From a virus (taxonomy: Duplodnaviria; Heunggongvirae; Uroviricota; Caudoviricetes), in IMG/VR virus record IMGVR_UViG_2671180673_000011, positions 1 to 37,210 of that record: a stretch of 37,210 nt of DNA; one strand, 5' to 3'. The notes beneath the pieces are model-generated. The model was not told the origin of the DNA and searched no databases. It was given only the letters and a program-made list of their open reading frames with translations. Of the stretch, positions 10,145 to 37,210 are shown one piece after another (positions within the stretch are counted from its first letter, which is position 1; the number at the start of each line of letters is the position of its first letter). The position numbers and the translations under genes are program-made.

Positions 10145-10711
10145 TCAGGGGGATTCATTACTCTTATTTGCCGGAAATTTTCTATAAATTGTGGAAACAC
10201 CCACATCAAAAATCAGTGCAATACGCTGTCTTGATTCTCCGGCCTCGAGTAAACGCCCAATCTGTGCCCACTGTTCGGTGGTCAACTTAGGACGGCGTCC
10301 ACCTACTCTGCCTTTGGCACGAGCTGCAGCCAGCCCTGCCCTGGTACGTTCAACTATCAGTTCGCGTTCCATTTCAGCCAGGGCACCCATGACATGAAAA
10401 AAGAAACGGCCCATTGGGGTACTGGTATCAATACTGTCAGTCAGGCTTCGGAAATTCACACCACGCTGGCGCAACTCCTCTATCAGCGTAACAAGATGCC
10501 GCATACTGCGCCCCAACCTGTCCAGCTTCCAGACAACCAGCGTGTCTCCTGCCGATAGTGTCCTGAGCAGCTTTTTCAGCCCCGGTCTGTCGGACTTAGT
10601 GCCACTGATTTTATCCTCAAAAATCCGCTCACATCCCGCGCAGTTCAGTGCATTACGTTGCAAATCGGTGTTCTGGTCATTTGTTGACACGCGTACATAG
10701 CCAATAAGCAT
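10145..10711 (-). CDS. serine-recombinase DNA invertase (Gin/Pin/Cin/Hin family)
   Basis: N-terminus MLIGYVRVSTNDQNTDLQRNAL from the internal ATG (GGGGG Shine-Dalgarno placed for ATG 10711); C-terminal HTH; adjacent to the tail-fibre inversion site. Confidence 0.9.
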   Translation of the reverse strand: MLIGYVRVSTNDQNTDLQRNALNCAGCERIFEDKISGTKSDRPGLKKLLRTLSAGDTLVVWKLDRLGRSMRHLVTLIEELRQRGVNFRSLTDSIDTSTPMGRFFFHVMGALAEMERELIVERTRAGLAAARAKGRVGGRRPKLTTEQWAQIGRLLEAGESRQRIALIFDVGVSTIYRKFPANKSNESP

Positions 10712-10738
10712 GATCATCCCCCTGAATAAAAACCGGAG

Positions 10739-21360: not shown

Positions 21361-22194
21361 TCAGCAATTGGTCAGAGTGTCAGCGAGGGCGTTACCGCCT
21401 GTTGCACGCTGGCGGTAGTCCTGGCGGCTGTCTTCATGGCTCAGCTTATTCACCAGTTCGTTAAAGGCGGTTTGCTGCTCCTGCAGAGCAGTCTCCAGCT
21501 CAGACAGGCGTTCTTCCTGCTCAGACAGGGATTTTTCGGTGCGTGCGCTCAGGTTCTGCTGCTCAGTGGCGACCAGCTCCACGGCTTTATGCACATCAGA
21601 GAACCGGGCATCGTCTGACTGCTCTTTTTTGGTGAACAGCGCCGTGACGCGGGCAAACAGGGACGGTTTGTCATCCTGGATTTCTTCCAGTTCGATCACC
21701 GTTTCCTCTGCAGCGGTAAAGAGATTGGCGGGATTCTGCTTGCGGTTTGCCAGCGGGTTATGGGCTGCACTGGCGCTGAATGTCAGCATTTCCGTACCCA
21801 GACTGGCAGGGTCATCAGTGGCAGCCAGGCCGACCAGGTAGGCTTTGCCCGTATCAGCGAACTTCGGGCTGACTTCCATAGAGGTGAATAATTTCTGGCC
21901 TTTTTTCACCAGTTCCACCAGGGACTCCGTTGGCTCAACGTCGGCATACAGCGCCATCTTGCCTGCCAGCGGACCTTCCGTGATTTCTTCAGCAAACAGC
22001 GCCGTCACCTTGCCGTAGCGGTTAAAGGTGCTGTCCGGCAGATAAGACTTGATGTGCTCAAGGTTAATCAGCGCGGTATACACCGCCGGGTTGTAGCTGG
22101 CTGCCATCTGTTCCAGCCATTCACGCTGGATTTCGCGTCCGTCGGTGGTGGCACCTTCCACCCCGATGCGAAAACGCTTTGCTTTCACTGTCAT
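21361..22194 (-). CDS. O: capsid scaffolding protein O
   Basis: 277 aa; ...FRIGVEGATTDGREI...INLEH... and C-terminal ...ATGGNALADTLTNC resemble P2 gpO. Confidence 0.85.
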   Translation of the reverse strand: MTVKAKRFRIGVEGATTDGREIQREWLEQMAASYNPAVYTALINLEHIKSYLPDSTFNRYGKVTALFAEEITEGPLAGKMALYADVEPTESLVELVKKGQKLFTSMEVSPKFADTGKAYLVGLAATDDPASLGTEMLTFSASAAHNPLANRKQNPANLFTAAEETVIELEEIQDDKPSLFARVTALFTKKEQSDDARFSDVHKAVELVATEQQNLSARTEKSLSEQEERLSELETALQEQQTAFNELVNKLSHEDSRQDYRQRATGGNALADTLTNC

Positions 22195-22272
22195 GAGCCG
22201 TGCTCCGTTAGAAAAAACTTACTGGAGCCTTATGGTTGCGGTGATGGGGGCAGTGAAACAATGCGCGGTATT

Positions 22273-22290
22273 TGTACCGACAACCACACA
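22273..22290. promoter_or_regulatory. candidate Ogr-binding late-promoter element (TGT-N12-ACA) in the divergent O/P region
   Basis: TGTACCGACAACCACACA, about 87 bp upstream of O and 55 bp upstream of P. Confidence 0.35.
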
Positions 22291-22336
22291 AACCGCAGGC
22301 GGGGAAAGCCTTCATTCAAGGCTGTAGGTTTGTGCC

Positions 22337-24103
22337 ATGAACACCACACTGACACCCGCAGATCTCGATCCCCGTCGGCAGGCCATGCTGCTGTACTTTC
22401 AGGGATACCGCGTAGCCCGCATTGCTGAAATGCTGGGCGAGAAAGTTGCAACCGTTCACAGCTGGAAAAAACGCGACAAGTGGGGTGACTATGGGCCGCT
22501 GGATCAGATGCAGCTCACCACCGCCGCACGCTACTGCCAGCTCATTATGAAGGAGCACAAAGAAGGGAAAGATTTCAAAGAGATTGACCTGCTGGCGCGC
22601 CAGTCGGAGCGCCATGCGCGGATCGGCAAGTTTAACAATGGCGGCAACGAAGCCGACTTAAACCCTAACGTCGCCAACCGCAACAAAGGCCCGCGCCGTC
22701 AGCCGGAAAAGAACGTTTTCACCGATGAACAGATTGAGAAGCTGGAAGAAATCTTCCATTCCTCCATGTTCAACTACCAGCGCCACTGGTGGGAAGCCGG
22801 AAAAACCAACCGCATCCGCAACCTGCTGAAGTCACGCCAGATCGGCGCGACCTTTTACTTTGCCCGTGAAGCCCTGATTGACGCCCTGCTTACCGGACGT
22901 AACCAGATTTTCCTTTCTGCCAGTAAGGCACAGGCTCACGTCTTTAAGCAGTACATCATAGACTTCGCCAAAGAAGTCGAGGTGGAGCTGAAAGGCGATC
23001 CGATGGTGCTTCCTAACGGAGCCACGCTTTACTTCCTCGGCACCAATGCCCGCACGGCCCAGAGTTATCACGGCAACCTGTATCTGGATGAATATTTCTG
23101 GATACCGAAATTCCAGGAGCTGCGCAAAGTGGCTTCCGGTATGGCTATTCACAAAAAATGGCGACAGACCTATTTTTCCACGCCATCCAGTCTGACACAC
23201 AGTGCTTATCCGTTCTGGTCCGGTGCGCTGTTCAACCGTGGGCGCAACAAAGCCGACAAGGTGGACATCGACCTGTCCCACAGCAATCTGGCCCCCGGCC
23301 TGCTGTGCGCAGACGGGCAATACCGCCAGATAGTCACCGTGGAAGATGCGGTGCGCGGCGGCTGTAACCTGTTCGACCTCGACCAGCTACGCATGGAGTA
23401 CAGCCCGGACGAATACCAGAACCTGCTGATGTGCGAGTTTGTGGACGATCTCGCGTCCGTGTTTCCGCTCAGCGAGCTGCAGGCGTGCATGGTGGACAGT
23501 TGGGAAGTCTGGACCGACTTTCATGCACTGGCCCTGCGCCCGTTTGGCTGGCGCGAAGTGTGGATCGGTTATGATCCGGCAAAAGGTACGCAGAACGGCG
23601 ACAGTGCCGGATGCGTGGTGGTGGCACCGCCAGCCGTGCCGGGTGGTAAGTTCCGCATTCTTGAGCGTCACCAGTGGCGCGGGATGGACTTCCGCGCCCA
23701 GGCTGACGCCATCAAAAAACTGACCGAGCAGTACAACGTGACCTACATCGGCATCGACTCGACAGGTGTCGGCCACGGGGTTTACGAGAACGTGAAAGCG
23801 TTTTTTCCAGCCGTCCGGGAGTTTGTCTACAACCCCAACGTTAAAAACGCCCTGGTACTCAAGGCCTACGACATTATCAGTCACCGTCGTCTGGAGTTTG
23901 ACGCCGGACACACCGACATAGCGCAGTCATTTATGGCAATCCGTCGCGCCACCACCGCCAGCGGCAACCGCCCAACCTATGAAGCCAGCCGCAGCGAAGA
24001 AGCCAGCCATGCCGATCTGGCCTGGGCAACAATGCACGCACTGTTTAACGAACCGCTGCAGGGCGAATCCGCCAATACCAGCAATATTGTGGAGATTTTT
24101 TGA
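22337..24103 (+). CDS. P: terminase ATPase (large) subunit P
   Basis: 588 aa, divergent from O as in P2. Confidence 0.9.
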   Translation: MNTTLTPADLDPRRQAMLLYFQGYRVARIAEMLGEKVATVHSWKKRDKWGDYGPLDQMQLTTAARYCQLIMKEHKEGKDFKEIDLLARQSERHARIGKFNNGGNEADLNPNVANRNKGPRRQPEKNVFTDEQIEKLEEIFHSSMFNYQRHWWEAGKTNRIRNLLKSRQIGATFYFAREALIDALLTGRNQIFLSASKAQAHVFKQYIIDFAKEVEVELKGDPMVLPNGATLYFLGTNARTAQSYHGNLYLDEYFWIPKFQELRKVASGMAIHKKWRQTYFSTPSSLTHSAYPFWSGALFNRGRNKADKVDIDLSHSNLAPGLLCADGQYRQIVTVEDAVRGGCNLFDLDQLRMEYSPDEYQNLLMCEFVDDLASVFPLSELQACMVDSWEVWTDFHALALRPFGWREVWIGYDPAKGTQNGDSAGCVVVAPPAVPGGKFRILERHQWRGMDFRAQADAIKKLTEQYNVTYIGIDSTGVGHGVYENVKAFFPAVREFVYNPNVKNALVLKAYDIISHRRLEFDAGHTDIAQSFMAIRRATTASGNRPTYEASRSEEASHADLAWATMHALFNEPLQGESANTSNIVEIF

Positions 24104-25140
24104 TGGGAAAGAGTAAGAAGAACCGAGCTGCGGCGACGAAACAGATCCAGCTTAAAAGTCAAACTACAGCCGAAGCATTCAGCTTCGGCGATCCCGTTCC
24201 TGTTCTGGACCGCCGTGAACTGCTGGACTATGTGGAATGCGTACAGATGGACCGTTGGTATGAGCCGCCCGTCAGCTTTGACGGACTGGCGCGCACCTTC
24301 CGCGCCGCCGTGCATCACAGTTCCCCGATTGCAGTAAAGTGCAACATTCTGACCAGTACCTATATCCCTCATCCGCTGCTCAGCCAGCAGGCTTTTTCGC
24401 GTTTTGTGCAGGACTATCTGGTATTTGGTAACGCCTACCTGGAGAAACGCACGAACCGATTCGGTGAAGTTATCGCCCTTGAGCCTGCCCTGGCAAAATA
24501 CACCCGACGTGGATTAGACCTGGATACCTACTGGTTTGTGCAATACGGCATAACAACGCAACCGTATCAGTTCACGAAAGGCAGCATTTTTCACCTGATG
24601 GAACCGGATATCAACCAGGAGATCTACGGCCTGCCCGGTTATCTTTCTGCCATTCCGTCAGCCCTGCTCAACGAGTCCGCCACGCTGTTCCGTCGAAAGT
24701 ATTACATTAACGGCAGTCATGCAGGCTTCATCATGTACATGACCGACGCCGCGCAGAACCAGGAGGATGTAAACAACCTCCGTAACGCGATGAAAAGCGC
24801 CAAAGGACCAGGTAACTTCCGCAATCTGTTTATGTACTCGCCTAACGGCAAAAAGGACGGACTTCAGATCATCCCATTGTCAGAAGTCGCGGCGAAGGAT
24901 GAGTTTCTGAATATCAAAAATGTCAGCCGCGATGACATGATGGCAGCGCACCGTGTGCCACCGCAAATGATGGGGATTATGCCGAATAATGTTGGGGGGT
25001 TTGGGGATGTGGAGAAGGCAAGCCGTGTATTCGTCCGAAATGAGCTAATGCCACTACAAAAGCGATTACAGGAGATGAATGATTGGCTTGGCAAGGAGGC
25101 GATACAGTTTGATACCTACTCGCTAGATATAGCCCCATAA
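24100..25140 (+). CDS. Q: portal protein Q
   Basis: 346 aa, overlaps the P stop by 4 nt; length of P2 gpQ. Confidence 0.9.
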   Translation: MMGKSKKNRAAATKQIQLKSQTTAEAFSFGDPVPVLDRRELLDYVECVQMDRWYEPPVSFDGLARTFRAAVHHSSPIAVKCNILTSTYIPHPLLSQQAFSRFVQDYLVFGNAYLEKRTNRFGEVIALEPALAKYTRRGLDLDTYWFVQYGITTQPYQFTKGSIFHLMEPDINQEIYGLPGYLSAIPSALLNESATLFRRKYYINGSHAGFIMYMTDAAQNQEDVNNLRNAMKSAKGPGNFRNLFMYSPNGKKDGLQIIPLSEVAAKDEFLNIKNVSRDDMMAAHRVPPQMMGIMPNNVGGFGDVEKASRVFVRNELMPLQKRLQEMNDWLGKEAIQFDTYSLDIAP

Positions 25141-25174: not shown

Positions 25175-25915
25175 TTACTCAATAGGTTCAAACTCATCTT
25201 GAGGAATCAGCGTCGATTGACAGGCTTGGCTTAGTACCCCTGATAATTTACATAATAACCGATAGTTATGAGGAGCATCATCGCTAATCTTTTCGACCGT
25301 TAAAGTGATTGATTTTGGATCATCCAATAACATCTTCTTGATGTCATTACTTAAATACCTAGGGCAGTAACCAACGATTTCAGCTGGTTTATCTGCACGA
25401 ACGACAACAGCATCCCCATCGTATTCATTTTGAAGATCCAAGCAAAGACGCAAAATTTGCCCCGGTTTCAATTCAGATACACGAGCATTAGCTAAGCTAT
25501 TCAAGTAACCAAGTCCATGTAAGAAGAAAAAATGCTCAAAGTTACCATCAGAATCAAAATCAATTTTTTTGAAAATCTGCAGCTGATCAGTGCTTCGTAA
25601 GCCTCCCGAGCGAGCAAGAATATCGATAGGATTTACCTTATCTTCTTCAAATCCAAGCCATTTAATGAAACTCGGATACTCTGGACGTCTCGGTGATAAA
25701 AGGCGATTTTTAAAAAGAGGAAACAATTCTTCCGATACATAAGTTTCACGAACATCACTCATGCCGCTAAACTTTGTAAATTTAGAAGATTTAAGAGCAC
25801 CTTTGGTATACCTGAAAACATACCCCGATTTGCGCTCTTGCAAGTTACCAACAACATGCCAGTCTCTGGTATCTGGTGCCTGCCATGCGACGTAAACGGA
25901 GTTTGTATTAGTCAT
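25175..25915 (-). CDS. HipS-like / HIRAN-domain fusion protein (putative partner of the HipA-like kinase)
   Basis: N-terminal LFPLFKNRLLSP and DILARSGGL resemble HipA N-subdomain-1 (FFDNLLPDSP...); C-terminal LRLCLDLQNEYDGDAVVVRADKPAEIVGYCPRYL fits the HIRAN signature; ATGA overlap with the upstream kinase gene. Confidence 0.6.
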   Translation of the reverse strand: MTNTNSVYVAWQAPDTRDWHVVGNLQERKSGYVFRYTKGALKSSKFTKFSGMSDVRETYVSEELFPLFKNRLLSPRRPEYPSFIKWLGFEEDKVNPIDILARSGGLRSTDQLQIFKKIDFDSDGNFEHFFFLHGLGYLNSLANARVSELKPGQILRLCLDLQNEYDGDAVVVRADKPAEIVGYCPRYLSNDIKKMLLDDPKSITLTVEKISDDAPHNYRLLCKLSGVLSQACQSTLIPQDEFEPIE

Positions 25916-26826
25916 TCTAGTAACCTTCTGCGATTTTCCATTACCATTAACGTTGCAAATCTACGTGCACTGTCGGATATACACGATGAAGGCACTTGGT
26001 TAAACACATCTGTAATGGAATCTTCTGTTAAAACGCTCAACTTACCTAACCAATGGTCGCGAGCGGCAACTCTCCCTTCAACTGCATGTTGAAATGCTTC
26101 AACAGTCAGCAAGGGCTTTTTATCAGTTTTTGCTTTGAATAGCTCAGAGCGAGCTTTTCTTACAAAACATGGGATTTGTCGATTTTTATCTTTAGTATTA
26201 AGCCGTTCGTTACGCTCATCATCTAACATCTCCCTTCCTAAACTAGCGGCATGATCGTATGTTGGACACAAAAACTGCTCACCAGTTTCATTGTTAAGCA
26301 TGATTGCCCAATTTTCATGGTGGCGATCTTGATTACTCACAAGTGCATCGAGCATCAAATATCCACAAAATACATCTGCTGCATTTAGCCCGGTTAGATC
26401 ATATACACTCGGAGGAGGCTTGATAGATTCCCTATCTAAACAACCCAAGACCCTTGTGACAGTGTGTTCTCTGACCCTTACCGGCTTTTCCCCGGCTTGT
26501 AAAGGCCCAGGATAATCGAATGTCGAACTGTGAAGCACTTCATTTCCCATTACCATCCGGAAACCAGATGGAATGATATTCTGAGTCACCACACCGAATC
26601 GACCATTGTATCGCGCCAAATCATAGCTAGCATGTGGAATGTTAAGCAAATGACATAACTCAGCAGCACACTTTTCAGACCAATGCTCGCCAGTACCTGG
26701 CCTAGAGTACTTAAACAACTGCAAATTTACAGTGTCATCGGAGAAATAGAACCAAAACTTCTCTTTGGTTCCTAACTGTTCAAGATCGTTAGCTACGGGG
26801 CTAAGCTCTACCAATTGGTATGGCAT
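25912..26826 (-). CDS. HipA-like (HipT-type core) protein kinase
   Basis: 304 aa; GTKEKFWF (cf. HipA Gly-rich loop VAGAQEK), catalytic loop SNQDRHHENWAIM (cf. HipA GATDGHAKNF), CPTYD (cf. HipA TPFYD); no HipA N-subdomain-1. Confidence 0.7.
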   Translation of the reverse strand: MPYQLVELSPVANDLEQLGTKEKFWFYFSDDTVNLQLFKYSRPGTGEHWSEKCAAELCHLLNIPHASYDLARYNGRFGVVTQNIIPSGFRMVMGNEVLHSSTFDYPGPLQAGEKPVRVREHTVTRVLGCLDRESIKPPPSVYDLTGLNAADVFCGYLMLDALVSNQDRHHENWAIMLNNETGEQFLCPTYDHAASLGREMLDDERNERLNTKDKNRQIPCFVRKARSELFKAKTDKKPLLTVEAFQHAVEGRVAARDHWLGKLSVLTEDSITDVFNQVPSSCISDSARRFATLMVMENRRRLLE

Positions 26827-27787: not shown

Positions 27788-30160
27788 TTAATACAGGTTC
27801 CGCCACTGATCATCTTCCTGCAAACGCTGGTTCCGATAGAAGATACGCAGGCCTGCTCCTGACGGAATACTGCCTCCGCGAAGGAGTAAATCGACCTCTT
27901 TCTCGCTGCCATCAAATCCTCTGGACTTCAGCTCATACACGAGCTGCAGTCGCTGATGGTCTGTAATTCGCTGTTTGTAGTCTTTACGCCGTTTCGGTTT
28001 CACCAGGCGTAACCTTGCTGCCAGTTCCCGGCGCTCTTTTTTGCTCATACTGTGCAGGTAATCGTGCAACTCCTTGTCATCCATGCTGGTAATGTCCGTT
28101 CTGGGGTTCCCATCAGCTGATTTATCTTTCTCCTGTTGGTTCAAATTTTCAGCAAGGGGACAGTTATTGCCACGAGTCCAAGGGGCGCAAGCGCCCTGGT
28201 CGGCTGCCGCCTCCTGAACGTCAACGGCCTTACGAACCATTTTCCACTTCACTGCATGAGTGCAGATCTTGCCCTCTGCAATGGGTGACCAGATGCCATA
28301 AATACGAATACCGTGATCGCCATAGGCGGTTGGCTCTTCGTTGATTTCATAAGCGGTTCTGATGAGGTGATATTTGCGGGGAACCAGTACGCCGCCCTGC
28401 TTCATGATGTAGGTGGCAAAACAACCAGCATCAGCAGCAGCCAGGATGGCATCAAGGCGCGGGTTATCCAGTACCGGCGCACCTGCTTTTTTGTCACCCT
28501 GTTGCCTTGCCGCCTGACCAGCCAGCAATCGCAGTTCACGGTAAGCCTGACGCCCCGGAATGCCAAAGAAGCGGAATTGCTGAACACGATGCAGAGACGC
28601 CCAGGCATTAACGTATTCAGCGTTATCACGCAGGGATTTACCCGTTTCCTTACTGATCTCGCCAGCCAAACCACGCCCGTCAATATTCTTACTGATATAT
28701 TTCGCAATGTAGCTTGTCGGCGTTCCTTTGCGCGGGTTTATCAGCTCAGACTTAAAGCGTGGCCCCGTGTTATTGCCCAGCTCCTCGCGGTCTTCACGGA
28801 TGGCAAACTTACGCAACAATGCAGTAATGGCGCGGCGGTCTTTTTTGCGCATGAAACACAACAGGTGCCAGTGAACTGTGCCGTCATGATGCGGCTCAGC
28901 CACCCGCACGCCATACCAGCGCAACCCGGCTTTGTGCATAGCCTTACGAAATGCAGCAAACATGCCGACCAGATAATCGCTGCTTTGTCTTACTGTCGCG
29001 TTGGTCCAGGTCGGGTTTGGCCTGCCGTTATTTAGCGTGGAATGGAAACGTGACGGACAGGTGATGGTGTAGAAAACGGCGCAGTCACCACGCATTTCCG
29101 CGATAAGCTCCAGGCCTTTAACACAGGCCATCATCTCATTGCGGCGATGCGCCGGGTTGCTGCTGCTGGCGTTTACCACATCCTCCATGTCCAGCGTGTC
29201 GCCGTCTTCGTTCACCAGTTCATGAGAACGGAAAAACTCCAGCGACTTACGGCGCTGCTCACGTTTATGCATCACGGCTTCATAGCTGACATAAGGAGAT
29301 GCTTTTTTGCTGACCAGGCAGACAGCGCGCAACTGCTCTTCCCGCCATTCGCAACGCATCTTCCATAATTTCCGGTACCACCAGTCGGCGCACAACATAC
29401 GCGCCAGCGAACCCGGAATGAGTTCATAGGGCACGGGTTTACGGCGGTTTCTTTTCCGACGGAGTTGCTCAAACGCAGGCGGGATAACATCCAGACGCAG
29501 GGTTTCCGCTGCCACCTTTTCCCATGTCTTGCGGATTTCTTCTGGCTTAACGTCATCGGTGGCATACAAATCACCACAAGCTGCATCAAGGCACATGCTC
29601 ATATGCGCAGCGACAAGGGTAGACAGGCGCTTCACCTGATCCTGACTCATTTCAGGCAGGATAAGCAGGCCATCCAGCCCTTCATGGCTTGCCATAAAGC
29701 GAAAAGAAGCGGATAGCTGACTGTCGCGTACATGCTCCAGTCGTTCCAGACATGGCTTAATCGTCTCACGCAAATAGCGGGAATAAGCCTTTGGCCTGCC
29801 CAGGCTGCTGAAGTATTCAATACGTTGCATCAGCGGCTTGCTGATATGGGAAGGCTGGGCATTGACGTCCGCCAGAATGACCATATCTGGATTAAAACGC
29901 TGCTGCTCATGCGCCAGCTTTGCCCGACTAATGAGCTTATCCTGCTCCATTTCGCGCTGGACAGGATCACGGGATTCATTAAAGAAATAACGCTCCCAGA
30001 CCTGATCACTCAGTACCTCGCGGCGCAGGTGTTCCTGTTCGTTATCGGCAGCGTACAGAGCGATCAGGTTTGAAAGCGCAGAAACTGAAGATTGCTCTTC
30101 TGTCCCTACGTAAGGATTGATTGCTTTTTTCTCAGCATTCCAGGAATAGCTGTAGTTCAT
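27788..30160 (-). CDS. A: replication initiation endonuclease A
   Basis: Large ORF of P2 gpA type; start placed at ATG 30160 (MNYSYSWN) with GGAG upstream, overlapping the upstream stop as TAATG. Confidence 0.85.
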
Positions 30161-30990
30161 TACGCAATCTCCAGTTCGAGCTGTGATGGCTGCAAACCAT
30201 TCGACAGCCAATCAGAAACTGAAGGTGGGCGAACAGCTTCAATTGCACCTTTTAAAATTGCGCAACGGTTTTTCAGAATGACAGCTTTCAGCTCCTTTTC
30301 CGTCAGATTGCGCGAATACTCAGCCTCCTGAATAGCCCGCGTAAGCTCAGGATATTTGCTATTAAATTTGGGGACATTGCAGGCAAGATTTGTACTGTCG
30401 GCAGTCGCCAGTGGGTAATTTCCCAACACACGACCGTCAAGCATGCGCAAACCATGAACAGCTGTTTTGAAATTGTGTCGGCAATAAATTGCTTCAAAAG
30501 CGTCCTGCATACGACGATGCCAGTGCGCAGTTCTGATAGCCGCATATTCACCAGACGATCCAAAGCAGACACGAGGCCATTCACGACATAGCTCGATAAG
30601 CCGATCGATTGACTCGTGCAGATGCCAGACGGGAGTTGCCTTCCCGTAGAACATTTTCGGAACTTCGTTTATCAGGGCATCATTGCCACGTTCACCGCCG
30701 TCCACAACATCAGGAATGACAAAAAAAGCGACCTTAGGATGGTGGTAATAGTTCAGGAGCCATTTATAAAAATCACTCCAGTTAATTTTTAGCCCACGCA
30801 CCCATGCAGAAAATGCGCCGTTATCAATGCCGACGACCTGAGCGTGCTGAATGGACGCCGCAATCTGATCTGGTCGTACATAGGAGACGAAAGCGCCAGC
30901 TCCGCTCACCGCAATACGATGAACGTCGCCAGCACTTCCCCAGACAGGCGTCCCATGGAAATGATGAATTCCGTGGTGCATTTCTTTCAC
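30160..30990 (-). CDS. hypothetical protein coupled to Dam; possible TGT/DpdA-like fold (speculative)
   Basis: 276 aa, GTG start overlapping the Dam stop; HG-TPV and GIDNGAFS loosely recall tRNA-guanine transglycosylase motifs, but no Zn-binding Cys cluster. Confidence 0.5.
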
Positions 30991-31841
30991 ACTTGCACCC
31001 CGAAAATAACAGTAGAGTCACGTCCCCTACTAAAATCGGCACTAAACCAATTAGCAGATTTAGTGGCAATCATCTCTGTTGCAAATTTTCCCTCCCCCGC
31101 TGCAACGCCGATGCTGCGTTTCGCCCTGATGTAGTGGTGAGTGAAATTACGATAAAGAGACCGGGTCAAAGACGTGTCACTGTTAGAAACAATGACCGGA
31201 TGTCCTTCAGATGCTCGATGTTCAAGAACGGATGCCAGGTGATACTGGTCATCTTCAGTGAAACCATCAGTGTGATAGCCGGAAAACGTACCGTCATACG
31301 GCGGATCGCAATACACCACATCCCCCGCCTTCAACATCGCCAGCGTTTCATCAAAGCTGGCGCAGATAAACGTTGCCCGCTGGGCTTTTTCTGCAAATGC
31401 GCGAATTTCTTTTTCAGGGAAATACGGATTTTTATAATTACCGTAGGGAATGTTGAAATGCCCGCTCTTGTTATAGCGACATAAACCACGGTAACCGTGA
31501 CGATTGAGATACAGGAAATATACCGCTTTCATGAAATCAGTAATTTCAGTGGAGTAATTAAACTCCTGCCTTATGTTATAATAAGCCACCTCCCTGTTTG
31601 CGATCTCAAATAAAACTCTGGCGCGAGATATAAACGATTCACAATCAGCGGCAACCTTTTTATAGAGGTTGATTAAATCAGGATTAATATCCGCAACCAG
31701 ATAGCTGGGGTAATCCGTCTCCATCATCACAGCACAGGAACCCGCGAAAGGTTCAACCAGTCGCGGGCCAGCAGGAAGGTGTTTTTTCAGTTCGGACATT
31801 ACGGCGGTTTTATTTCCCGCCCATTTCAAGATGGTGCTCAT
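30987..31841 (-). CDS. dam: DNA adenine methyltransferase, Dam family
   Basis: ILKWAGNK N-terminal motif, FAGSCAV SAM-binding motif, DPPY catalytic motif; start ATG 31841 with GGAGG Shine-Dalgarno, ATGA overlap with upstream gene. Confidence 0.9.
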
Positions 31842-32065
31842 ACAGCACCTCCGTTGTAATGTTTGCCTTTCAGCTCTGCGATTTCCTGACATGTAATGCA
31901 AAGCTGCACACCCGGAATGGCACGGCGGCGTGCTGGCGGAATTGGCGCTTCACACTCAACGCAAAGCACGCGGGACACGCCCGGCGTTTTGGCACGGGCA
32001 GCACGGATATGGCGCTGGCGTTCTTCTTCAACGCGCTGCTGTACGAGATCCATTGCATCAGCCAT
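31838..32065 (-). CDS. TraR/DksA-family C4 zinc-finger protein
   Basis: 75 aa with CVECEAPIPPARRRAIPGVQLCITC (CxxC...CxxC). Confidence 0.75.
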   Translation of the reverse strand: MADAMDLVQQRVEEERQRHIRAARAKTPGVSRVLCVECEAPIPPARRRAIPGVQLCITCQEIAELKGKHYNGGAV

Positions 32066-32878: not shown

Positions 32879-33388
32879 TCACAGCAAACCGAATGAAGCA
32901 CCGAGGCCAGTAACGGTATCAACTGCACTCGCCATCGCAGGATTAGCCTGTAAACGGGCCTGCAATGAAACAGCGGCCAGCGCCATCAGCCGTGTTACAG
33001 AGTTAATGCTGCTGATAGCATCACGACGACCTGCACTGGTTTTTACATCGCCGGATACCGCACCTGCAGCAACACGCCCGATCTCTGCGGTTGCACTCAT
33101 GACATAATGCGGCAGTTTCTCTTTTGCCACCTCATTAATCGGTACACATGGCAGGCAGTGAATCTGTGCCAGAAAGCCATCTACCAGCGTTGAATCTTCA
33201 GTCAGATCGGTAAGCAACCAGATTTCTGGTGCGGTTAATAAATGAGGTTGAGCTGGGTTCAGCTTGTTCCGCAGAATCTGTACATTCATGCCTGCACGTT
33301 CTGCCAGTTGCACCAGGTTGTGGCGCAGTGCGAATGCACGACAAGCTTCGTCAAAATGTGGATGTTTGGAAACTTGGTAATCAAACAT
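32879..33388 (-). CDS. cII: CII-like lysogeny-establishment regulator (186 type)
   Basis: 169 aa from ATG 33388 ([24 protein letters not shown]...); same length and position as 186 CII as I recall. Confidence 0.7.
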
Positions 33389-33420
33389 AGTCGACACCCC
33401 TGATGTATCCCAAAATGGAA

Positions 33421-33642
33421 CTAGTTGAATACAACATTGCAATCAGTAAGTGCATCAACGGTAAGAGCAGCAAGGTTGATCATTACCTTTTCTCTTTTCT
33501 TGTCTTTCCGAAGGCGATGGCGAGGGATGCGACCATCAGCCAGCATATCGTTGATGGTGTCGATAGAAAGACCAGTAAGTTCGCTATAACGCTCAATTGT
33601 GACATGTGGCGTATTCAGAGTTATTGAAATGTTAGGGGTCAT
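33421..33642 (-). CDS. apl: Apl/Cox-like excisionase-repressor
   Basis: 73-aa basic protein ([26 protein letters not shown]...) divergent from cI. Confidence 0.6.
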
Positions 33643-33737
33643 GATGCAACATCTCCTATTGGCTTGTGGTGAGCCTGTAGTAATCGTGACAAGTACCCAA
33701 ATGGGGACAAAATTGATACTAGGATCGCAAAAGAGAT
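33643..33737. promoter_or_regulatory. lysis-lysogeny switch region (divergent apl and cI promoters)
   Basis: 95-bp AT-rich intergenic region between divergent apl and cI. Confidence 0.4.
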
Positions 33738-34334
33738 ATGTCAACATCAAAGTACCCAAATGAGATCAAAATAAATCCCAATAAAGGTGGTAAGGCTGCG
33801 ATTGAGCGATTAGTCGAAGCTTATGGCTTTACGACACGACAGGCTTTAGCTGATCACTTGGAAGTATCAAAAAGCACTCTGGCGAACAGGTATTTGCGGG
33901 ATACGTTTCCTGCAGACTGGATAATCCAATGTGCTCTTGAAACAGGAACCTCACTGAAATGGTTAACCACCGGGCAAGGCCTTAAGCAAAGCTCGCTGAC
34001 AGCAGCTACAGAAGAGCTTGCCAAGTTTCGCCTTACCGCAGGCAAAATGATTGAAGATGGTTCATATGTCTTCGATTCATCATTTCTTCCTGCAAATCTT
34101 TCATCACCAATTGTTATTCAGGATGGGCTCGTCACATACATTTGTGATCAAAAATTTTCTGAAGTACTTGATGGGCACTGGTTAATCAACATCGACGGAA
34201 CCTATTCCATTCGAAAAATCACAAAGCTTCCAAAAGGTATGATTAAAATTACAAGTACAGAGAATAGCTTTGAATGTGCATTTTCTGATATTGAAGTAGT
34301 TGCTTGTATAAGAAGTACAATAGTTTCAAATTAA
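33738..34334 (+). CDS. cI: CI immunity repressor (186 type)
   Basis: 198 aa with N-terminal HTH (FTTRQALADHLEVSKSTLANRY) and C-terminal domain, upstream of int. Confidence 0.8.
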   Translation: MSTSKYPNEIKINPNKGGKAAIERLVEAYGFTTRQALADHLEVSKSTLANRYLRDTFPADWIIQCALETGTSLKWLTTGQGLKQSSLTAATEELAKFRLTAGKMIEDGSYVFDSSFLPANLSSPIVIQDGLVTYICDQKFSEVLDGHWLINIDGTYSIRKITKLPKGMIKITSTENSFECAFSDIEVVACIRSTIVSN

Positions 34335-34354
34335 TATAGTAAAAGGATTTAAAA

Positions 34355-36031
34355 ATGAATTCATTTTCCATCGTTATATTCTTATTAGCATTTCTCGCCC
34401 CCATTCTAGCTGTAATATTATTTAAGCAAAGCAAAAAACATAAAGCGGCTATAAATACCTTGACAGCTAACAACATAGCCCTTTCCAACCAACTGAAAGA
34501 AAATCAAGAAGAATTAGCACAGACTGTACGAGATCTATCAGAGCTTGAAGGACGAGCTGCGCCATTATGGCAATACGCAGAATTGCACAGCGCAGTGATG
34601 GAAGCAGAGAATAAGATAAAAAATGCAGACTCAATAGCCAGGCAAAAAATAGAAGAAGCCCAAATAAAGGCTGCTAAGACAGTAAACGAAGCAAATTATC
34701 AAGCTCAGATAAAAATAAGCAACGCTAATAGCGAAGCTATAGCAATTACTAAAGACGCTCGCGATGCACGCCTGAAAGCTAAAGAACGTCTTGATAATGC
34801 CAATAGTAAAGCAAATGAGCTGATCTCAAATGCTAATGACAATGCAGTGAAAATTATTTCCGATGCAGAAGAAAGAGCAAAAGAGATTGCTGGTTCAGCA
34901 TATGAAGCTAAAGAGTTTGCAGAAAAATATGAAGCAGTTGCCAAATCAATGAAAAATAAAATTGAAGGTTATGGTGATGAATGGATCATCCCTAACCGTA
35001 GCGTTCTCGATGAATTGGCAGAAAATTATGAGTTTACAGATGCAGGTAAGGAATTACAAAAAGCCAGGGAGTTAACAAAATCATTAATAAAAACTAATAA
35101 AGCTGCTTCGTGTGATTATGTTGAACAAAACAGGCGTAATACTGCTATCAACTTTGTTTTAGATGCCTTCAATGGAAGAGTTGACAGTATTTTATCAAAA
35201 GTCAAACACCACAATTTTGGAAAACTTTCCCAAGAGATAAAAGATGCGTTTCAACTTGTAAATTACAATGGTTCTGCCTTTAGGTCCGCAAAAATAAGTG
35301 ACATCTATCTTCAAGCTCGACTCAACGAGCTAAAATGGGGAGTTGCAGTTAATGAAATTATGCTCGAAGAAAAAGAAGAGCAAAGAAGGATTAAAGAACA
35401 ACTTCGTGAAGAGGAAAGAGCTCGTAGGGAGTATGAAAAAGCGATAAAAGAAGCTGAAAAAGAAGAGAAAGCTATTCAGCAAGCTATAAATAAAGCAACA
35501 AAAGAGCTTATGCTTGCAAATGAAGAACAACGCTTAGCTTTAGAGCAAAAAATAGCTGAACTACAGTTAAAATATGAAGAAGCTGAAGCTAAAAACCAAC
35601 GAGCTATTTCTATGGCTCAACAAACTAGATCAGGCCACGTTTATATAATTAGTAATATTGGCTCATTTGGCGAAGATGTATATAAAATTGGAATGACACG
35701 CCGCCTTGAACCACTTGATCGTGTTCGTGAACTCGGTGATGCTAGTGTTCCTTTTTCGTTCGATGTTCATGCGATGATTTATAGTGATGATGCACCATCA
35801 TTAGAAAATCATCTGCATAAAGTCTTCAACGAAAAACAGGTCAATAAAATTAACTCACGAAAAGAGTTTTTCAACGTAAATATTAAAGAAATTAAGTCTG
35901 TTATTGAAGATATGAACATCAACGCACAATGGACAATGTTTGCGGAAGCGAAAGAATATAGAGAGTCACTGGCGATTGAGCAAGAGCGCAAAGCAGCAAC
36001 TTCCGCCAACGATGAACTGCATGTTGCTTAG
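34355..36031 (+). CDS. membrane-anchored coiled-coil protein with C-terminal T5orf172/MUG113-like (GIY-YIG-like) domain
   Basis: 558 aa; N-terminal TM helix (IVIFLLAFLAPILAVILF), about 350 aa of K/E/A-rich coiled coil, then GHVYIISNIGSFGEDVYKIGMTRRLEPLDRVREL...LHKVF...EFFNV; strongly AT-rich; AAAGGA Shine-Dalgarno. Confidence 0.7.
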   Translation: MNSFSIVIFLLAFLAPILAVILFKQSKKHKAAINTLTANNIALSNQLKENQEELAQTVRDLSELEGRAAPLWQYAELHSAVMEAENKIKNADSIARQKIEEAQIKAAKTVNEANYQAQIKISNANSEAIAITKDARDARLKAKERLDNANSKANELISNANDNAVKIISDAEERAKEIAGSAYEAKEFAEKYEAVAKSMKNKIEGYGDEWIIPNRSVLDELAENYEFTDAGKELQKARELTKSLIKTNKAASCDYVEQNRRNTAINFVLDAFNGRVDSILSKVKHHNFGKLSQEIKDAFQLVNYNGSAFRSAKISDIYLQARLNELKWGVAVNEIMLEEKEEQRRIKEQLREEERARREYEKAIKEAEKEEKAIQQAINKATKELMLANEEQRLALEQKIAELQLKYEEAEAKNQRAISMAQQTRSGHVYIISNIGSFGEDVYKIGMTRRLEPLDRVRELGDASVPFSFDVHAMIYSDDAPSLENHLHKVFNEKQVNKINSRKEFFNVNIKEIKSVIEDMNINAQWTMFAEAKEYRESLAIEQERKAATSANDELHVA

Positions 36032-36090
36032 CAATGTATGTTTCATAGTAATCACACATTGATTACTGGTTGTATATACAGTTAAATTTA

Positions 36091-36114
36091 GCCCTCTGAT
36101 ATGAGGGCTTTTTT
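36091..36114 (+). terminator. rho-independent terminator abutting the int start
   Basis: GCCCTC-TGATAT-GAGGGC followed by TTTTTT, then ATG 36115. Confidence 0.5.
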
Positions 36115-36939
36115 ATGGCAGTACGAAAACTCACCACAGGAAAATGGCTTTGCGAATGTTACCCCGCCGGACGTAGTGGACGTCGTGTGCGTAAACAATT
36201 CGCCACCAAAGGCGAAGCTCTGGCTTTTGAGCGTCACACGATGGAAGAAACCGAAGCAAAGCCCTGGCTGGGTGAATCAGTGGATCGTCGAACACTGAAA
36301 GACGTGGTTGAACTATGGTTCAAACTACATGGTAAATCTCTGACAGCTGGGCAGCATGTCTATGACAAATTGCTGTTGATGGTTGACGCTCTGGGCAATC
36401 CTCTTGCAACCGATCTCACCTCTAAAATGTTTGCCCACTATCGAGATAAACGCCTGACAGGCGAGATCTACTTCAGCGAGAAATGGAAGAAAGGAGCAAG
36501 CCCGGTCACCATTAACCTGGAGCAAAGCTATCTAAGTAGTGTTTTTAGCGAACTATCCCGTCTGGGCGAATGGTCGTATCCGAACCCACTGGAGAACATG
36601 CGAAAATTCACCATCGCAGAAAAAGAGATGGCATGGCTTACCCATGAGCAGATTGTTGAATTGCTGGCTGATTGCAAACGTCAGGACCCAATTCTGGCAC
36701 TGGTAGTTAAGATATGCTTAAGCACAGGCGCACGCTGGCGTGAAGCCGTAAATCTTACTCGCTCACAGGTGACCAAATACCGAATTACCTTTGTCAGAAC
36801 GAAGTAGAAGAAAAACAGAAGCATCCCTATCAGTAAAGAGCTTTACGAAGAGATCATGGCGCTTGATGGGTTCAATTTCTTCACAGACTGCTATTTTCAA
36901 TTTTTATCAGTGATGGAAAAAACGTCTATCGTGCTCCCT

Positions 36940-36940
<1 letters not shown>
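36115..36940 (+). pseudogene. int: P2/186-type tyrosine integrase, interrupted by in-frame TAG and 3' end lost at contig end
   Basis: MAVRKLTTGKWLCECYPAGRSGRRVRKQFATKGEALAFE closely matches 186 Int; in-frame amber at 36805-36807; frame continues (KKNRSIPISKELYEEIMALDGFNFFTDCY...LPRG) until the sequence turns into poly-C. Confidence 0.8.

Positions 36941-37210
<270 letters not shown>

Follow-up and report, generated by a model that had tools for sequence, protein, structure and literature searches.

A SNIPE-type (PD-λ-1 family) defence gene as probable cargo of the cI–int junction in a P2/186-like prophage

The gene that separates cI from int in a P2/186-like prophage, within the 37,210-nucleotide stretch of DNA analysed here (the window), very likely encodes a single-protein defence system of the SNIPE type (PD-λ-1 family), carried by the prophage as cargo. 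The family is already named, is found by standard tools and is mechanistically characterised. By analogy with its characterised member, the most likely function of the gene is direct defence, in which the DNA of an incoming siphovirus would be cleaved at the inner membrane. What this locus adds to the established picture is modest, namely the divergence of the subfamily in its specificity-related parts and the bounded cI–int cassette with its conserved hairpin.

The gene at the cI–int junction

The ORF listing of the window contains a 558-aa frame with an ATG start on the plus strand, 20 nt further on from the cI stop codon (34332–34334). The features of the locus are as follows:

32879–33442, minus strand: CII (CP76), by Pfam, on the strand opposite to cI
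33686–33713, plus strand: pL-like site GTGACA-16-CAAAAT, from a consensus scan; cI and the cargo gene would be transcribed from it
33744–33716, minus strand: pR-like site TTGACA-17-TAGTAT, from a consensus scan, on the opposite strand and overlapping the region of the pL-like site
33738–34334, plus strand: cI immunity repressor, 198 aa (Pfam Phage_CI_repr 8e-32, Phage_CI_C 4e-27)
34343–34347, plus strand: Shine-Dalgarno sequence AAGGA, 7 nt 5' of the ATG at 34355, read directly from the sequence
34355–36031, plus strand: SNIPE / PD-λ-1 homologue, 558 aa (ORF, PADLOC, Pfam and identity to the PhiR26_1 PD-lambda-1 product)
36032–36114, plus strand: conserved int leader, the right cassette edge (homology between cargo types, hairpin scan)
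36115–36946, plus strand: integrase gene (Pfam Int_N 1.8e-32)

The GC content of the gene is 0.369, compared with 0.524 in the remaining prophage (3165–33700) and 0.475 in int, and the lower GC is already found from the C-terminal half of cI (0.342). In phage 186, cI (22433–23011) and int (21423–22433) share one base, and the cI–int junction in the window holds approximately 1.78 kb more. A sequence-only reading of this DNA had described a strongly AT-rich gene with its own Shine-Dalgarno sequence, wedged between two genes that adjoin in 186-type phages, and the ORF, the AAGGA motif, the composition and the arrangement in phage 186 all agree with that description.

Domain architecture of the encoded protein

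The protein is predicted to consist of a membrane anchor, a helical stalk, a central domain, a linker helix and a nuclease domain, arranged in the following order on the plus strand:

34364–34426, plus strand: predicted N-terminal transmembrane (TM) helix, residues 4–24 (hydropathy; same layout in SNIPE)
34427–34846, plus strand: predicted helical stalk/adapter, residues 25 to ~164 (AF2 helix)
34847–35359, plus strand: conserved central domain, residues ~165–335, holding the Pfam DUF4041/'SNIPE' match
35360–35629, plus strand: predicted long E/K/R-rich linker helix, residues 336–425 (AF2 helices 316–387 and 390–425)
35630–35929, plus strand: GIY-YIG (T5orf172/MUG113) nuclease domain, residues 426–525 (Pfam)

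Residues 4–24 are the sole strongly hydrophobic stretch of the protein, scoring 2.99 on the Kyte-Doolittle scale with a 19-residue window, and the KQSKKHK motif that directly follows the predicted helix would fit a cytoplasmic location of its C-terminal side. The stalk/adapter is rich in A, E, K and N and is the most variable region of the protein; within the subfamily, residues 1–110 are approximately 65% identical, as against 85–93% elsewhere. It carries NANS-like repeats, with NADS, NANS and NAND motifs at residues 90, 123, 148 and 159, and the self-similarity of the protein peaks at a lag of 11 residues. A weak DivIVA-like match at residues 34–194 was rejected as a coiled-coil artefact, the score of the DivIVA_Wag31 model being far under its cut-off.

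DUF4041 (PF13250) matches residues 267–322 with 46.0 bits (cut-off 27). Among representatives that are 34–53% identical, however, conservation begins near residue 165, and the central domain therefore extends well beyond the 56 residues of the Pfam model. In the C-terminal domain, Pfam T5orf172 matches residues 427–520 (61.7 bits, 1e-16, cut-off 20) and MUG113 matches residues 443–520 (70.7 bits, 1.6e-19, cut-off 22.3). In a set of 42 sequences with identities as low as 34%, the invariant or near-invariant positions are G427, Y430, K444-I-G446, R449/R450, E484, N497/N500 and E504-F-F506; of these, E484 (codon 35804–35806) is the counterpart of the catalytic E414 in SNIPE.

The AF2 model, with a mean pLDDT of 82.4, shows near-continuous helix at residues 2–204 and 316–425 with a helical middle domain between them, and gives the C-terminal domain a β-β-α-β-α topology. 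This model was built with the 34–53%-identical representatives; an alignment of 32 sequences at 81–97% identity gave a mean pLDDT of only 54.9, and that model was left out of the fold search. Fold searches with the full-length model returned mostly coiled coils and weak matches to Slx1 (GIY-YIG) with E values of about 1, and a sequence search of the PDB with the window protein found no relative. Taken together, the single hydrophobic stretch, the AF2 helix with its four motifs, and two Pfam nuclease models above their gathering cut-offs bear out the N-terminal TM helix, the long coiled coil with NANS-like motifs and the C-terminal T5orf172/MUG113 GIY-YIG-like domain of the sequence-only reading, whose proposed domain check recovers both DUF4041 and T5orf172 above cut-off.

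Relation to SNIPE

A functional selection had brought PD-λ-1 to light in E. coli ECOR26 (Vassallo et al. 2022, PMC9519451). It was renamed SNIPE when its mechanism was solved (Saxton et al., Nature 2026, PMC13190303). The ECOR26 protein is anchored in the membrane and cuts incoming phage DNA during injection, in a manner that depends on E414, and its DUF4041 region binds DNA. Phage adsorption is unaltered by SNIPE; injected λ genomes appear approximately 30-fold less, 32P-labelled injected DNA is fragmented, and an induced λ prophage is unaffected. Protection extends to siphoviruses only, no tested myovirus having been blocked, and is described as direct defence with cell survival, in explicit contrast to an Abi system (PMC13190303). 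Contact with the tape measure protein is indicated by gain-of-function mutations that affect DUF4041 or the helix after it, by phage escape mutations and by crosslinking; ManYZ is an additional partner for λ, and the W257R substitution strengthened SNIPE against Bas14 (PMC13190303). The N-termini of SNIPE homologues are highly variable; many look like DivIVA or like subunit b of ATP synthase, and a role as specificity adapters was proposed for them, and 59% of the homologues have one TM helix within their first 70 residues (PMC13190303).

The window protein matches this family over most of its length. The PADLOC PD-Lambda-1 models PDLC03976 (1.4e-119; residues 103–550 against profile positions 33–481 of 491) and PDLC03977 (9.9e-116) together cover residues 103–551, and the PADLOC candidate PDC-S57 matches the C-terminal domain at 3.3e-20. 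PF13250 carries the label 'SNIPE' in the precomputed Pfam annotation, and in RefSeq this protein already bears the name 'DUF4041 domain-containing protein' or 'SNIPE associated domain-containing protein'. The top PHROG match, phrog_1847 (6.4e-132), is an entry without an assigned function.

As the SNIPE reference, we used a 500-aa DUF4041 protein from a lambdoid prophage of E. coli 730V1. It has all nine residues mutated in PMC13190303 at the positions given there, and is 99% identical to the product annotated in GenBank as 'PD-lambda-1' of Escherichia phage PhiR26_1. BLASTP aligns the window protein with the PhiR26_1 product over 293 aa at 49% identity (E = 7e-77), whereas the N-terminal ~260 aa give no significant BLASTP alignment to SNIPE. 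By region, identity to SNIPE is 74% in the nuclease, 47% in the linker and 25% in the Pfam DUF4041 stretch.

The two proteins are alike in general plan: each is encoded by a single gene carried by a temperate phage and combines a short N-terminus that would be periplasmic, one TM helix at the same extreme N-terminal position followed by a basic cluster, a stalk, DUF4041, a linker helix and a T5orf172-type nuclease in which the catalytic Glu is kept (E414 in SNIPE, E484 here). They differ in length (558 aa against 500), the stalk of the window protein being approximately 70 residues longer, and in genomic setting: the SNIPE gene of a lambdoid phage is flanked by ren and the nin region, whereas the gene studied here occupies a P2/186-like cI–int junction. 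The positions at which mutation or crosslinking marked out the tape-measure-facing surface of SNIPE map to S292, Q320, L323, K327, E334, Q375, I378 and N389 of the window protein. Five of these eight differ from SNIPE (S292, Q320, K327, Q375 and N389), with K327 standing where SNIPE has W257. Because both the DUF4041 surface and the N-terminus have diverged, the partner proteins and the phage range may differ as well.

On the strength of this fit, in homology, variable N-terminus and architecture, we assign the SNIPE mechanism to the window protein with fairly high confidence. The PD-Lambda-1 matches and the 49% identity to a characterised protein also support the earlier suggestion of a prophage defence gene, but not the novelty that it implied: the architecture is that of a characterised system, PD-λ-1 / SNIPE. 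Zorya, Kiwa and prophage superinfection exclusion proteins are also active at the inner membrane, while the genome is being injected or shortly afterwards (discussed in PMC13190303), yet their sequences and domains are unrelated to the window protein, and PADLOC returned no match of the window protein to any of them.

The cI–int junction as a cargo slot

We gathered 157 related loci via cI or int, and both genes could be located in 123 of them. In 18 of these 123, cI and int are separated by only 9–34 nt, and the integrases of these loci are only 50–56% identical to that of the window. All sampled loci with an integrase at least 64% identical carry cargo of 411–3036 nt. The cargo falls into approximately 40 protein clusters, many of which are defence systems, and nearly all are oriented with cI and int on the plus strand. 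The SNIPE type occurs in 47 loci, all of which have a CI allele sharing at least 78% identity with that of the window. Other cargo includes an AAA_15/OLD/AriA-like ATPase, PDC-M11A/B, PDC-M18A/B, HEC-01 (AAA_21 plus DUF4276), PDC-S20 KAP NTPases, AbiU, a HEPN protein, a Tle1-like phospholipase and several families without a match.

Homology between loci with different cargo extends through 34303–34334, stops at the cI stop codon, which is thus the left edge of the cargo cassette, and restarts at approximately 36032–36056. This comparison of cI–int spacing among relatives identifies the gene as cargo, in a slot that phage 186 leaves unoccupied. It agrees with the sequence-only reading in placing the gene among defence cargo rather than conserved core, since the gene is absent or replaced in most related loci. 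One correction to the earlier reading is that the prophage, though P2/186-like, is distinct from 186 itself.

In P2-like prophages, hotspots at fixed positions between core genes likewise hold variable defence cargo (Rousset et al. 2022, PMC9122126; Vassallo et al. 2022, PMC9519451; also NAR 2026, PMC13586616, and the iLund4u preprint 10.1101/2024.10.15.618418). The two classic P2 hotspots are gpA–portal (old/tin) and Z/fun, whereas the site studied here runs from the cI stop to the int start and lies inside the lysogenic operon, with a conserved, hairpin-bearing int leader as its right edge. The accessible text of these sources does not mention that leader as a boundary of the cI–int site. 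The cI–int hotspot is already known, coarsely, from recent surveys, and its exact boundaries may be new. The prophage also carries a second candidate system, PDC-M03, at a classic P2 hotspot.

Distribution

The gene is common: full-length copies with at least 90% nucleotide identity are present in 165 of 5,426 complete E. coli genomes. Approximately 143 further E. coli genomes match only the nuclease region, at approximately 73% nucleotide identity, and the one of these that was inspected carries an ECOR26-type protein. The window type is also present in two phage isolates, Klebsiella phage KP12 and Escherichia phage vB_EcoM-813R9, and Citrobacter, Salmonella, Klebsiella and Enterobacter are among the hosts of proteins with 81–85% identity. 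For the Klebsiella and Citrobacter homologues, the gene order cII-apl-cI-gene-int is the same. When the N-terminal 264 aa were used as the query, in order to look for fusions of this adapter to other effectors, all 40 full-length matches carry DUF4041 and 33 also carry the nuclease; the remaining seven have DUF4041 only and may be truncated.

Proposed mechanism and alternative readings

The functions of the pL-like and pR-like sites were assigned by analogy with the annotated pL and pR of phage 186, and the consensus scan found no promoter-like site between cI and the SNIPE-like gene. From these scans, it is plausible that the gene is transcribed together with cI in the lysogen, most likely from the pL-like promoter, with most transcripts probably ending at the hairpin and T-run that precede int. 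The N-terminal helix of the protein would insert in the inner membrane, leaving the stalk, DUF4041 and the GIY-YIG nuclease in the cytoplasm. Upon injection of a superinfecting genome, most likely that of a siphovirus building its tape-measure-protein conduit, the DUF4041 region would engage the tape measure protein complex together with the entering DNA, and the nuclease would cut this DNA during entry. The cell would survive, making this direct defence rather than abortive infection, and the membrane tether would hold the nuclease away from the chromosome. We further propose that the resident prophage would be unharmed on induction because the nuclease acts only on entering DNA. Of this scheme, the present analysis shows the ORF with its position and domains, its homology to the characterised protein and the conserved catalytic residues. 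Localisation, nuclease activity and action during injection are transferred by homology from the published work on SNIPE, and the shared transcript with cI, the host partner and the phage range we only infer.

One alternative is an abortive-infection or toxin-type nuclease, in which infection would free or activate the GIY-YIG domain, so that host and phage DNA were degraded and the cell died. SNIPE without its TM helix is toxic, causing E414-dependent chromosome breaks (PMC13190303). The match of the C-terminal domain to PDC-S57 and the presence of Abi-type cargo at the same junction in other loci (AbiU, HEPN, KAP NTPases) point in this direction. We nevertheless consider such a mode of action improbable: in the nearest relative that has been characterised, defence is direct and the cells survive, it is PD-Lambda-1 and not PDC-S57 that matches the full-length protein, and the TM helix and the architecture are kept in the window protein.

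Somewhat less probable again is a role in the prophage's own cycle, either the exclusion of related P2-like phages or the degradation of host DNA during lytic growth. The placement of the gene in the lysogenic operon beside the immunity gene, and its restriction to CI alleles close to that of the window, would suit such a role. On the other side, SNIPE had no effect on the tested myoviruses or on prophage induction (PMC13190303), phage 186 does without the gene, and most relatives lack it and have unrelated defence genes instead, which argues against a core function.

The GIY-YIG-type domain, a base composition unlike the surroundings and the precise placement between two genes would also be expected of a selfish homing endonuclease gene that had inserted itself between cI and int. 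We rejected this reading as very improbable, since Pfam finds DUF4041 and no homing-endonuclease DNA-binding module in this protein, which also has a predicted TM helix, the slot is shared by approximately 40 unrelated cargo families, a pattern that points to the swapping of cassettes at a hotspot and not to homing, and the characterised relative is a defence protein (PMC13190303). The product name 'chromosome segregation ATPase', given to the protein in the GenBank records of KP12 and vB_EcoM-813R9 and echoed by a weak NCBIfam SMC match, is a mislabelling with next to no probability of being right, because that match, a coiled-coil artefact, reaches 15.5 bits where the cut-off is 729.4 and is confined to the coiled-coil linker (residues 319–431), and Pfam finds no ATPase domain.

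Implications and the int leader

The main value of assigning the gene to the SNIPE family lies in annotation, in that the prophage can be recognised as carrying an entry-stage defence nuclease. With this nuclease and the PDC-M03 candidate, lysogens should resist some superinfecting phages, and such resistance would be relevant to phage therapy and to host-range prediction. Additionally, it is precisely in the regions believed to determine specificity that the subfamily departs from SNIPE, which makes it well suited to testing the adapter hypothesis. The sharply bounded cI–int slot, which holds many unannotated genes, is in turn a source of candidate defence genes.

Two further ideas, separate from each other, are put forward tentatively, with somewhat less than even confidence. 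The first is that the window subfamily is a re-targeted SNIPE: its adapter at the N-terminus, which is longer and diverges fast, and its changed DUF4041 surface could steer it towards another inner-membrane entry factor and another set of phages than those of the ECOR26 protein. The second is that cI, cargo and int form a defined expression cassette. The int leader contains the hairpin AGCCCTC-tgatat-GAGGGCT at 36090–36109, followed by a T-run (36110–36114) that abuts the int ATG; the scan classes it as terminator-like, and its 3' arm contains the GAGG-like Shine-Dalgarno sequence of int. In 41 of 43 distinct int leaders, a helix of 5 bp or more ends within 9 nt of the ATG, and the folds of these leaders, calculated per sequence, have a median z-score of -4.55 against mononucleotide shuffles, a weaker control than dinucleotide-preserving ones. 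If the cassette idea is right, the hairpin would terminate a constitutive transcript of cI plus defence gene and sequester the int ribosome-binding site, and defence cargo could be exchanged without de-repressing the integrase.

The integrase gene itself is interrupted by a TAG codon at 36805–36807, where its ORF (36115–36807) ends. In the alignment to phage vB_EcoM-813R9, this codon corresponds to a GGG-to-TAG change within int, and the alignment decays from approximately 36947, a poly-C artefact.

Cargo genes at the cI–int junction

Across the surveyed loci related to the window prophage (L002 and L045–L157), the slot between cI and int holds approximately 40 families of cargo genes. Several of the recurrent families have no match in Pfam or PADLOC, and their proteins are candidates for new defence genes. 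The following are cargo proteins without a match in either database:

L157, 3229–4242: protein of approximately 330 aa, an example from a family present in 9 loci
L053, 6687–7766: protein of 360 aa
L074, 6623–7765: protein of 381 aa, encoded upstream of PDC-M11A/B
L089 (Klebsiella phage 4LV2017), 4250–5906: pair of proteins of 350 aa and 201 aa
L099, 4448–5926: protein of 493 aa

The SNIPE homologue itself can be accompanied by a second gene, which lies between it and int in 9 loci (L032, L033, L034, L037, L041, L044, L091, L092 and L093) and encodes one of the following products:

same strand: 309-aa protein, no match
opposite strand: PDC-S31/DUF2971 protein
opposite strand: DUF559/REase_MTES_1575 protein
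opposite strand: 286-aa protein, no match

A hairpin in the int leader

Downstream of the SNIPE homologue, a short leader directly abuts the int start codon:

36032–36114: int leader, consisting of ATACAGTTAAATTT, then a GC-rich hairpin, then a T-run, placed directly against the int ATG

This arrangement of ATACAGTTAAATTT, hairpin and T-run is conserved in the int leaders of cargo-bearing loci among L002–L157. The sequence of the stem occurs in several different versions. Specifically, 41 of the 43 distinct leaders form a helix of 5 bp or more that ends no more than 9 nt from the int ATG, and folding of these 43 leaders gives a median MFE of −13.4 kcal/mol and a median z-score of −4.55 against mononucleotide shuffles. 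Additionally, a GAGG-like Shine–Dalgarno sequence lies within the 3′ arm of the hairpin in 40 of the 43; the majority of cargo-free 186-like loci have no such leader. We propose that the int-leader hairpin may act both as a terminator of the cI-cargo transcript and as a mask over the int ribosome-binding site.

The integrase ORF that follows is interrupted by a TAG at 36805–36807, where a close relative reads GGG, and this stop codon may be a sequencing error. Farther along, 231 of the final 264 bases of the window (36947–37210) are C, and in the close relative ordinary int sequence continues from the point at which the window turns C-rich. This C-rich stretch resembles an artefact of base calling or assembly at a contig end.

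A second candidate defence locus and other features of the prophage

The classic P2 hotspot, the interval between the portal gene and gpA, is occupied by a two-gene candidate system detected with PADLOC:

24100–25140: portal, flanking the hotspot
25175–26826, minus strand: PDC-M03A and PDC-M03B
27788–30211: gpA, flanking the hotspot

The PDC-M03A gene (match at 2.1e-122) is also weakly HipA_C-like, and the PDC-M03B gene (6.8e-93) contains a HIRAN domain. Together with the SNIPE homologue, this candidate brings the defence loci of the window prophage to at least two. Further features lie elsewhere in the window:

935–2617: host YbjL-like permease with Asp-Al_Ex and TrkA_C domains, at the left end
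10148–10717: resolvase-type invertase in the tail-fibre region, close to a tail-fibre assembly gene
30990–31901: Dam-like orphan methyltransferase, adjoining gpA

In phage vB_EcoM-813R9, rcdA adjoins int. Taken together with the YbjL-like permease at the left end of the window, this puts ybjL on one side of the attachment site and rcdA on the other.

SNIPE-type relatives elsewhere

In some Klebsiella loci (L166 and L167), the order cII-apl-cI-SNIPE-int is retained, with most other prophage genes deleted or fused. In one of them ogr and a reverse transcriptase adjoin host ybjL, and another contains an ORF that fuses CII to the tape measure. The immunity-plus-defence module thereby retained seems to outlast prophage decay.

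Among 40 full-length matches to the N-terminal 264 aa of the window protein, six (P0144, P0151, P0162, P0220, P0226 and P0234) contain Pfam DUF4041 without T5orf172/MUG113, and these may be truncated or bear a different effector. In P0151, a protein of 565 aa, 288 residues following DUF4041 have no Pfam domain assignment. For P0211, a seventh nuclease-negative match, the Pfam domains are limited to thioredoxin-like and NHL.

The window-type gene of two isolated phages (GenBank records OM835953.1 and ON470620.1) carries the label ‘chromosome segregation ATPase’, a misannotation driven by the coiled coil, which we reject.

Proteins of Synechococcus phage Yong-L1-251 and Marinitoga camini virus 2 (OM868080.1 and KP836356.2) share 63–66% identity with the C-terminal half of the window protein, whereas the characterised E. 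coli reference, ECOR26 SNIPE, is more distant at about 50% identity. Such closeness of the two phage proteins is unexpected given their hosts.
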